A stretch of 64,000 nucleotides of DNA from Solirubrobacteraceae bacterium (GTDB lineage Bacteria > Actinomycetota > Thermoleophilia > Solirubrobacterales > Solirubrobacteraceae). The stretch lies in assembly GCA_035940195.1 (NCBI GenBank), contig DASZFC010000044.1, forward strand, positions 3,267 through 67,266, given 5' to 3'. The position numbers were made by a program, and so were the translations under genes. Within the stretch, counting starts at the first letter, position 1. Each line of letters opens with the position of its first letter. Positions 59,222 to 60,106 of this stretch are shown here, piece after piece. The notes beneath the pieces were generated by a model. The model was not told where the DNA came from. It made no database searches and saw nothing but the letters and a program-made list of their open reading frames with translations.

Positions 59222-59800
59222 GTGGATGCCACCGTTCCACTTCTAACGCGTAGTAGACCCGTGTCGGCACCCGAATACCGGCGACGCGGTCCTGACAGTG
59301 GCCGGGTGCTCGTCCTCAACGCGACGTATGAGCCGATCAACGTGTGCACGGTCCGGCGCGCGGTGGTGCTGTTACTGAAGGACAAGGCCGAGCTGCTCGA
59401 GCGAGGCGGCTGGGAGCTGCACTCCGAGAACGCGACGCTCGCGCGGCCGGTTGTGATCCGCCTCATCAGTTATGTCCATGTCCCCCGCGACGCCCACCGG
59501 CGCAAGATCACCCGCCGGGCTGTGTTTGCCCGGGATGGCTGGACATGCCAGTACTGCGGCTCGCACTCGAACCTCACGGTGGATCACGTGATTCCCCGCT
59601 CCAAGGGCGGATCCTCGAGCTGGGAGAACATCGTCGCCTCCTGCGCCCCTTGCAACCGGCGCAAGGGCGACCGGCTTCCCAAGCAGGCGGGGATGCACCC
59701 GCGGCACGCCCCGCGTACGCCCCGCGCGGAGATCTTTATCCACGTTGCCAGCCCGACGATCCCGACGGCGTGGCTCCAATATCTGCCGCAGGCCGCATAA
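59222..59800 (+). CDS. HNH endonuclease (McrA-like, HNH_5 type)
   Basis: VLVLNATYEP, RDGWTCQYCG, TVDHVIPRSKGG..WEN..C..CN..K. Confidence 0.92.
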   Translation: MDATVPLLTRSRPVSAPEYRRRGPDSGRVLVLNATYEPINVCTVRRAVVLLLKDKAELLERGGWELHSENATLARPVVIRLISYVHVPRDAHRRKITRRAVFARDGWTCQYCGSHSNLTVDHVIPRSKGGSSSWENIVASCAPCNRRKGDRLPKQAGMHPRHAPRTPRAEIFIHVASPTIPTAWLQYLPQAA

Positions 59801-59803
59801 GCA

Positions 59804-59836
59804 GCGGAGGGCGCCTGGGGTACAGGCGCCCTCCGC
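59804..59836. terminator. 14-bp perfect hairpin, likely terminator between convergent units
   Basis: GCGGAGGGCGCCTG-GGGTA-CAGGCGCCCTCCGC. Confidence 0.78.
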
Positions 59837-59999
59837 ACAGCTGCCCTGACTGGACGGCCGAGACGGCCAAAAACGTCTGCCGGGGGGACCAGAACCGGCG
59901 ACCGTCTCGGGGTGTCCCGGTTGGATTCCGCTAAGCGGTCCAGCCTTTGGTCTATCCCGAAAGGACGTGCAGTCCTCGAGGGCTAGACCTTGCTCCGAC

Positions 60000-60044
60000 C
60001 TAGCGGCCGGTCACCTCCAGAGTCCCGCAAAAACTGTCAGCCAA
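60000..60044 (-). CDS. 14-aa micro-ORF MADSFCGTLEVTGR
   Basis: TTG..TAG directly downstream of AGAAAGGAGGTGGTCC. Confidence 0.5.
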   Translation of the reverse strand: MADSFCGTLEVTGR

Positions 60045-60076
60045 CGTTAGGACCACCTCCTTTCTCTGGTCTGGCC

Positions 60077-60106
60077 AGAGTAGCGGACGGGGGTGACGCT
60101 CAGCAA
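60077..60106 (-). promoter_or_regulatory. Housekeeping sigma promoter candidate
   Basis: TTGCTG-N18-TACTCT on the minus strand, just downstream of the gyrA stop. Confidence 0.6.

Follow-up and report, generated by a model that had tools for sequence, protein, structure and literature searches.

A divergent relative of the Ms_IGR-5 RNA in Solirubrobacteraceae: an extended Shine-Dalgarno sequence, a micro-ORF and a predicted pseudoknot

Two described groups of small bacterial RNAs are close to the locus considered here. The first is Ms_IGR-5 (RF02471), filed in Rfam as a non-coding sRNA of Actinobacteria with no function assigned. In Mycobacterium smegmatis, IGR-5 (= ncMSMEG15794c) is placed between MSMEG_5794 and MSMEG_5795; it is NAD-capped, starts at A and is described as 'validated but yet uncharacterized' (bioRxiv 10.1101/2021.12.14.472595). 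It is reported to be expressed and to be longer than first thought (PMC10454040), and the member from Streptomyces lividans was validated by RNA-seq (PMC8079986). In a literature search that did not extend to subscription papers and bioRxiv supplements, no paper was found that describes an extended Shine-Dalgarno (SD) sequence, an ORF or a pseudoknot in Ms_IGR-5.

The second group is formed by the rreB/rreR small mRNAs of Alphaproteobacteria, which have a 17-nt SD sequence and a 14-codon ORF (Hahn et al., RNA Biol 14:1353, PMC5711450). The rreB RNA of Bradyrhizobiaceae co-sediments with 30S subunits and is weakly translated, and removal of its start codon stabilised it from 10 to 37 min. Cells overproducing rreB twenty-fold grew no more slowly, and the RNA is vastly outnumbered by ribosomes; for these reasons simple sequestration is doubted by the authors (PMC5711450).

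The locus and its relation to Ms_IGR-5

The window, that is, the whole stretch of 64,000 nt that was analysed, comes from a Solirubrobacteraceae bacterium. The predicted RNA lies on the minus strand (59800..60070) and is about 270 nt long; it begins at the A of ACCAG and finishes with a terminator hairpin, both ends being predicted. Position 1 of the Rfam model aligns at 60070, and R1, our own family model built from 93 sequences, matches 59868-60070. A promoter-like element (60077..60106, minus strand) consists of the -35 box TTGCTG (60106-60101), an 18-nt spacer and the -10 box TACTCT (60082-60077); this element and the RNA start lie 50 nt after the gyrA stop on the minus strand. The -10 region is kept in all 25 genus members, as TACTCT in 18 of them and as variants in 7, and the -35 hexamer begins with TTG in just 6 of the 25. 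The triplet CGC occurs directly 5' of the -10 box in 25 of 25 genus loci (L001-L025), often with GTC about 15 nt further up. The kept CGC and -10 box with a mostly lost -35 box may be the mark of a specific sigma factor or activator. The sigma-70 scan of the region did not call the promoter-like element.

At the other end, a G+C-rich, terminator-like hairpin of 14 bp with a weak U tract (59804..59836, minus strand; folding z -5.1) abuts the stop codon of the convergent HNH gene. The terminator scan did not call this minus-strand hairpin (59836-59804). The original prediction, which named a promoter, an extended SD sequence, an ORF, five stems and a terminal hairpin, placed all of these features correctly. 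It also took the RNA to be self-contained and structured, and this is supported: the predicted RNA is stand-alone and conserved, and the 276-nt minus strand folds better than 200 of 200 shuffles (z -4.4).

Contigs from RNA runs that are identical to the window cover the RNA; such contigs cannot show its ends, strand or level. One of them, of 446 nt, bridges the gyrA 3' end and the RNA, and read-through from gyrA may be a source of the latter. High expression, suggested by summed contig depth (10- to 100-fold over the flanking genes in runs X1 and X4), was set aside, as contig depth cannot rank genes and contigs of relatives add to it. Runs X5-X22, with small shares, were taken as no evidence on expression. 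The locus is a real, well-conserved RNA gene.

The Rfam scan gave one meaningful match, Ms_IGR-5, with 24.1 bits and an E-value of 0.0057 in 2 kb. This match is collinear over the whole model (positions 1-184) and lies below the gathering cut-off of 45 bits; a same-genus copy scores 26.9, and the genome-wide run of the Ms_IGR-5 model yielded no match for the genome of the window. The joint alignment of 93 sequences includes Ms_IGR-5 members over the cut-off, and P1, the P2 base, P4 and the pseudoknot described below covary across it with these bona fide members. R1 scores 114-116 bits with mycobacterial-type loci (genomes G150 and G109, both in the seed) and 111 bits with a locus from the family of the window (G085, not in the seed), and the homologues grade continuously up to true Ms_IGR-5 members. 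Judged by these comparisons, the RNA is a divergent relative of Ms_IGR-5. It had been called undescribed, which is not supported in view of the whole-model match, the graded homologues and the published rreB-type small mRNAs. The Infernal/Rfam check suggested at the time returned no match reaching any cut-off. The accompanying remark that the RNA is not recognisable as tmRNA, RNase P, SRP, 6S or a riboswitch stands, and 6S/Ms1 is rejected together with the rest, as Rfam gives nothing near the cut-off for any of them.

The RNA shares with Ms_IGR-5 an AC start, the extended SD sequence, GGAC, GAGGUG, the stop codon, the AAUCC bulge, CACC and a hairpin with a GUCC loop. True Ms_IGR-5 members (176-186 bits) have the same frame, of 12 codons, and the same fold. 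Unlike them, the RNA of the window has 14 codons, an extra P2 hairpin and a second pseudoknot, and it sits between gyrA and an HNH gene. The two best Ms_IGR-5 members are flanked by an aminotransferase class IV gene on one side and a THAP4-like gene on the other, in agreement with the location published for IGR-5, between MSMEG_5794 and MSMEG_5795. Identity with Streptomyces scr4389, guessed from map position, was dropped, as streptomycete-type loci match only Ms_IGR-5 in Rfam; no link emerged from passages of PMC2602773, PMC8388888, PMC11133741 and PMC4109619.

Predicted pairing with the 16S tail, the micro-ORF and the fold

The front of the RNA is occupied by SD1, an extended SD sequence of 16 nt (60050..60065, minus strand) that begins 5 nt from the predicted 5' end and is complementary to the 3' tail of 16S rRNA with one G-U pair. 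The assembly of the window has no assembled 16S 3' end, and the tail was taken from same-genus genomes, with the mature 16S 3' end assumed from the gene sequence. The 16S gene ends in GGATCACCTCCTTTCT in all five same-genus genomes searched, and therefore the originally proposed 16-bp pairing with one G-U holds. No 16/16 site other than SD1 exists in the 2.25-Mb assembly. The SD1 duplex with the tail has a calculated energy of -27.8 kcal/mol, compared to -20.8 for the best and -9.25 for the median of the candidate starts of 930 long reading frames. Pairing over 16/16 positions, with G-U allowed, is possible in 57 of 60 homologues and over 15 positions in the other 3, and the distance from SD1 to the start varies from 7 to 13 nt across the family. 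Thus, by complementarity, the front end of the RNA can pair with the whole 16S tail. A remnant of rRNA was rejected: the bases flanking the SD do not continue as 16S, and true 16S ends look different.

SD1 is followed after 5 nt by the TTG start of an ORF of 14 codons (60000..60044, minus strand; TTG...TAG; MADSFCGTLEVTGR), which was subjected to frame, start and stop tests and to a codon table. Of 30 close homologues, 20 share this TTG and 9 have an in-frame ACG (60047-60045) as their sole candidate start. Among 60 homologues collected without a stop constraint, 59 have an in-frame stop exactly 9 nt after GAGGTG (TAG in 48, TAA in 6, TGA in 5). An ATG, GTG or TTG codon in frame at SD distance is present in 143 of 178 loci, compared to 5 and 47 in the other two frames. 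If near-cognate codons are counted as well, all 178 loci have a start in frame, compared to 34 and 118; six unparsed rows, one chance match and five viral, were dropped from these tests. A canonical in-frame start is absent from all four viral control hits. ATG comes first in just 50 of the 178 loci, the others using TTG, CTG, GTG, ACG, ATA, ATC and ATT, and the ORF length varies from 12 to 19 codons across the family. The loci L045, L053 and L057, which come from unpublished genomes, are in the start/stop, codon and SD1 counts and are absent from alignment A1 and the Pfam scan. The GTG inside SD1 was rejected as a start, since the distance from SD1 to GAG is not fixed modulo 3 (79/62/38 of 179). 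By these counts the micro-ORF is under selection for translation, and the 14-codon frame first noticed in the window is conserved, with the stop in 59/60 and the start in 178/178 homologues.

The ORF is also a part of the predicted fold; all strands given below are on the minus strand. Codons 10-13 pair with a strand ending in CACC to form P1 (60015-60007 with 59920-59911). The 5' strand of P1 overlaps a second SD-like element, SD2 (GGAGGUGA, 60018-60011; the two together occupy 60007..60018), which is situated nine bases before the stop and 8 nt before the last sense codon; its duplex with the 16S tail has a calculated energy of -18.3 kcal/mol. P1 by itself may account for the invariance of SD2, and for 120 of the loci GAGGTG belonged to the search pattern. 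The base of P2 (59928..60006) is formed by the last codon and the stop codon (60006-60001) with 59933-59928. The apical part of P2 is variable and includes a genome-specific hairpin (59989-59949). Between P1 and P2 there is an unpaired bulge AAUCCAA (59927-59921), which together with the 3' strand of P1 occupies 59911..59927; alignment column 146 in the bulge is an invariant A, column 150 is C in 89 of 93 sequences, and the third to fourth bases tolerate change. P3 (59910-59900 with 59868-59858) carries P4 (59899-59895 with 59883-59879), the whole domain being 59858..59910.

The loop of P4 contains GGUCCC (59890-59885), which may pair with GGGACU in codons 7-8 of the ORF (60021..60026), forming the pseudoknot PK1. 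Compensatory changes in PK1 were observed at columns 46-202, 47-201, 50-198 and 51-197, with G-C replaced by U-A, A-U and C-G at one pair and C-G by U-A at another. A further long-range pairing, of 59945-59938 with 59855-59848 (59848..59945), crosses P1/P2 and thus makes a second pseudoknot. It is lineage-limited, being the best helix at that position in 33 of 51 surveyed homologues by an eye count without a shuffle control.

The fold was assessed on a plain MAFFT alignment of 93 of the 184 parsed loci. Left out were the non-Actinomycetota and viral loci, loci with long insertions, loci with no or a wrong anchor, 13 near-identical genus copies and 3 unpublished loci. The named structure is paired in 79.8% of the cells, compared to 69.7% in shuffles and 24-45% with slid partners, and two-sided changes occur at 19 of 23 pairs, the shuffle controls ignoring kinship. 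RNAalifold recovers P1 and the P2 base unaided. The tree-aware covariation test, with too few supported branches, gives only 1-3 supported independent pairs, too few to count as evidence. The predicted fold of P1, P2 and the pseudoknot is supported by the comparison of homologues.

The nested stems of the original prediction are retained in part. P3, P4 and the terminator stand, and the pairings with the best support, namely P1, the P2 base and the pseudoknot, in all of which the ORF takes part, had been missed. The stem 59848-55/59938-45 is present, although it is not nested and is the lineage-limited second pseudoknot. The hairpin GGTCTA/TAGACC (59949-59989) also exists, as a private insertion that most relatives do not have. 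In the Rfam consensus structure of Ms_IGR-5 the SD sequence pairs with the ORF, and neither P1 nor the pseudoknot is included. An alternative hairpin of the SD1 tail with the ORF is possible (84% paired) and was not retained, as it covaries little (2 pairs compared to 1.8 in shuffles). A shrunken copy in Isoptericola (L181:291-400) has P1 closing over the stop codon and no P2 or AAUCC bulge; the GUCC-loop hairpin stays.

Distribution and genomic context

A DNA search found the locus once each in 36 of 41 genomes, and in 24 of 24 same-genus genomes besides that of the window. The Rfam model of Ms_IGR-5 finds it in 35 of 121 Actinomycetota genomes, in 16 of them over the cut-off, and in none of 14 control genomes. 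R1 finds it in 56 of the 121, with one copy each except in one genome; the set includes six unpublished genomes (G041, G058, G088, G108, G128, G159), and without these the count is 50 of 115. Genome G061 has two near-identical copies (G061:C17:3902-4104 and G061:C126:9255-9458), a duplication that may be a binning artefact. Pattern search added a divergent form, which all 8 genomes of family f20 (4 of them examined at full length) and both genomes of family f8 contain. The f20 form resembles locus L070 of Rubrobacteraceae. L070 and the similar loci L308-L311 have 18-20 codons with the start always ATA or ATC; their SD2 is part of an extended anti-SD helix, and their 3' domain differs. Such non-AUG AU(A/C) starts recall the infC-type control by IF3. 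Among 46 genomes under 2.45 Mb the searches gave the RNA in 6, compared to 46 of 52 genomes of 2.95 Mb or more (38 by R1 and 8 with the variant form); this split is a description only, as kin are not independent.

The gene neighbours vary. All 25 genus loci have the RNA flanked by HNH and gyrA, compared to none of 30 phylum-wide loci, and no ribosomal neighbour genes are conserved at the loci. A partner RNA of HNH or a leader of a fixed gene was rejected, as there is no fixed downstream gene and the flanks vary. The convergent HNH endonuclease gene (59222-59800; Pfam HNH, HNH_5) is no farther than about 1.5 kb from the RNA at every one of the 25 genus loci and at 4 of 5 loci from the same order, in one case upstream of it. 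In one same-order genome a PemK/MazF-type gene is directly upstream of the RNA (L028:1861-2301). A mobile element was rejected, as a search of 72,556 plasmids gave no match. A phage RNA was also rejected: ten viral pattern hits score at most 13.3 bits with R1 and do not have the family design. One unverified 'Bacteriophage sp.' record (MT835602.1, L300:1501-1680) contains a complete family member with flanks of high G+C content and is probably a bacterial host contig filed as phage.

A pattern scan of 1/64 of the GTDB collection produced 120 stretches, which corresponds to an estimated 10,000 or so overall, and 17 of the 120 have titles outside Actinomycetota or unclassified. With R1, ten of these 17 match at full length with 35-85 bits, six score 15-22 bits and one is unmatched. 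The ten full-length matches come from Acidobacteriota, Desulfobacterota-type bacteria, Ignavibacteria, Leptospira and one unclassified source. The R1 scores outside Actinomycetota are partly circular, as the search pattern is part of the model. However, the 3' side is independent of the pattern, and there the bulge plus CACC is present in 15 of 20 loci (16 of the 17 and 4 further ones). At these loci the motif pairs better with the ORF strand of its own locus than with that of another, with a mean of 4.0 compared to 3.0 pairs (0 of 5000 shuffles); for seven distinct types the means are 4.1 and 2.5 (5 of 5000 shuffles). P1 also covaries outside Actinomycetota, and the pseudoknot strands are present in two loci of the Acidobacteriota type (L132, L293). 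In these phyla little more than a plain hairpin is often left of the P3/P4 domain. In terms of sequence and predicted pairing, the core of the RNA is shared by loci from Acidobacteriota, Desulfobacterota, Ignavibacteria and Fibrobacteraceae.

R1 finds the RNA in 4 of 41 genomes of the phylum of the Terriglobales locus and in 3 of 41 of the phylum of the Syntrophobacter locus, one of the latter matches being false. This model is trained on Actinomycetota and may miss divergent copies in other phyla. The R1 match L299 was discarded as a false partial match inside a coding sequence. Membership is uncertain for the Leptospira locus L125 (38 bits) and four loci of Terriglobia/Bryobacterales, which have SD1, the frame and SD2, but no bulge plus CACC within 170 nt. 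At three loci of Terriglobia/Bryobacterales (L107, L127, L143) the RNA is located just upstream of a frame, and the N-terminal residues encoded by this frame read like those of ribosomal protein L31. Locus L296 is flanked by the rpsT (S20) gene. The Acidobacteriota locus L293 (1500-1760) has GAGGTG twice in frame within a 19-codon ORF.

The fold with P1 and the pseudoknot corrects the catalogued one, and the range is wider than that of the Rfam family.

Possible function and comparison with known systems

Of the two readings in the original prediction, a ribosome-capturing RNA and a regulated micropeptide mRNA, the former appears to be the better one. The reading we prefer, with a confidence somewhat short of even, is a weakly translated RNA that would hold ribosomes at both ends of its frame, its lifetime being tied to translation. 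It likely acts by holding the ribosome rather than through the peptide. A 30S subunit would dock on SD1 and initiate weakly from the poor start codon. The pseudoknot, 13-19 nt into the frame, would at this stage be at or just beyond the mRNA entrance, as the size of the ribosome footprint implies. Elongation would melt the pseudoknot and P1 and free SD2, which could then re-pair with the tail, slowing termination or recycling. Such re-pairing is suggested by the position of SD2, which at the decoding of the stop codon is 8 nt before the P-site codon, in the same register as at initiation; the 8-nt spacing falls within the range of 7-13 nt that separates SD1 from the start. If rreB is a guide, the lifetime of the RNA would be set by translation: slow initiation might let it accumulate on idle subunits, and renewed translation would remove it. 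Once accumulated, it could park subunits and shield the 16S tail. The ribosome-holding model gives the AAUCC bulge no explanation, and the unslowed growth of rreB overproducers and the large excess of ribosomes over that RNA also speak against it.

A bolder version, which we consider improbable, would be an old multi-phylum class of RNA that captures idle or inactive 30S subunits and flips their tail into the active state, the pseudoknot gating elongation and SD2 parking the ribosome. It would span Actinomycetota, Acidobacteriota, Desulfobacterota, Ignavibacteria and Fibrobacteraceae and, if true, would be an RNA counterpart of protein hibernation and maturation factors.

It is doubtful that the peptide of 12-19 residues is the product, with the long SD, the poor start codon and the fold keeping its synthesis low or conditional, an option that the authors of the rreB study left open for rreB (PMC5711450). 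The start and the stop are in frame across phyla, and within the polar, variable peptide a C-terminal T-x-E-V-x-x-R/C recurs and Ser and Asp are frequent near the N terminus. However, the conserved-looking residues sit exactly on paired or SD-like nucleotides, whereas the N-terminal residues vary freely. Glu-Val is encoded by GAG GTG in 59 of 59 cases with no synonymous change, and in gyrA/gyrB valine is encoded by GTC as commonly as by GTG (53 and 45 codons). In the pseudoknot strand of the ORF the first codon positions vary, and the second and third are fixed. Moreover, three homologues (L058, L286, L287) read the same GGAGGUGG in another frame, as Gly-Gly-Gly. Thus it is probably not the peptide sequence that is the conserved unit.

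Still less probable is a trans-acting RNA, in which its own translation would open P1 and the pseudoknot so that the C-rich bulge or the GUCC loop could bind a protein or the SD sequences of mRNAs. The unpaired AAUCC bulge is conserved across phyla, and GUCC is the end of both the SD1 tail and the P4 loop, which could be competitors for the same ORF strand. On the other hand, the third to fourth bases of the bulge are changeable, and the hairpin of the SD1 tail covaries hardly better than shuffles.

The GGUCC extension of SD1 would pair with 16S bases immediately 5' of the anti-SD, presumably nt 1529-1533 in E. coli numbering. The RNA could thus be a chaperone or test substrate for activation of the 30S subunit, drawing the tail out of an alternative helix with nt 921-923 and into its active form, but we regard this as quite unlikely. 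For 30S subunits that are inactive or immature, re-pairing of nt 1532-1534 with 921-923 is reported (PMC11182017), and nearly every member keeps the part of SD1 that exceeds a normal SD. However, no ribosomal neighbours are conserved, and the RNA was found in only 6 of 46 small actinobacterial genomes (under 2.45 Mb) and, with the Rfam model, in 0 of 14 control genomes, which argues against a general assembly factor.

Finally, SD1 might be a stabiliser only, similar to STAB-SD elements, very strong SD sequences near the 5' end without a reading frame, where the bound 30S subunit blocks 5'-to-3' decay and would here protect a downstream non-coding domain; although SD1 starts 5 nt from the predicted 5' end and the 3' domain is structured and covaries, this is quite improbable, as a stabiliser needs no conserved frame, yet the start and the stop are kept, the P3/P4 domain is often a plain hairpin outside Actinomycetota, and the 3' domain pairs with the ORF and therefore cannot stay folded when the ORF is translated.

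With the ribosome-holding reading, an sRNA catalogued for a decade as non-coding would be built like an RNA that is translated and docks on ribosomes, with two SD elements and a covarying pseudoknot. As members are present in M. smegmatis and Streptomyces, the purpose of small mRNAs with a full SD duplex becomes testable in tractable hosts, and the alignment already names compensatory mutations. To our knowledge, the listed bacterial hibernation and maturation factors are proteins. If the RNA parks or activates subunits, it would add an RNA to these factors.

Of the tested systems, rreB is the closest. Both are stand-alone small RNAs with 16-17 nt of complementarity to the 16S tail, a non-ATG start, a 14-codon ORF whose 3' half is paired with the 3' region, a variable hairpin at the stop codon and a terminator. 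However, among 64 distinct copies of rreB none has an internal GAGGUG and none has the AAUCC bulge plus CACC. The anti-SD of the rreB ORF folds back on the leader, and the complementary region runs into the GTG start, whereas in the RNA of the window the TTG is separated from SD1, and starts vary across the family, unlike the GTG of rre RNAs. The rre pairing with 16S is perfect Watson-Crick, in contrast to the one G-U here. In 10 of 10 rreB loci R1 matches only 33-34 nt at the SD, with 14-20 bits. As the rreB copies have no SD2 and no bulge plus CACC and match R1 at the SD only, rreB is, on sequence grounds, an analogue and not a member of the family, and at most works alike.

Near-perfect SD sequences also characterise the type I toxin mRNAs of Bacillus, which have conserved hydrophobic peptides and an antisense RNA, whereas the peptide of the window is polar and variable. 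The tmRNA (RF00023) of the same genome is on another contig (C49, 169.6 bits). The RNA described here does not match RF00023 and has no tRNA-like domain, and it has its own SD sequence and start codon; however, like tmRNA, it combines a short reading frame with adjacent pseudoknots and would be aimed at the ribosome.
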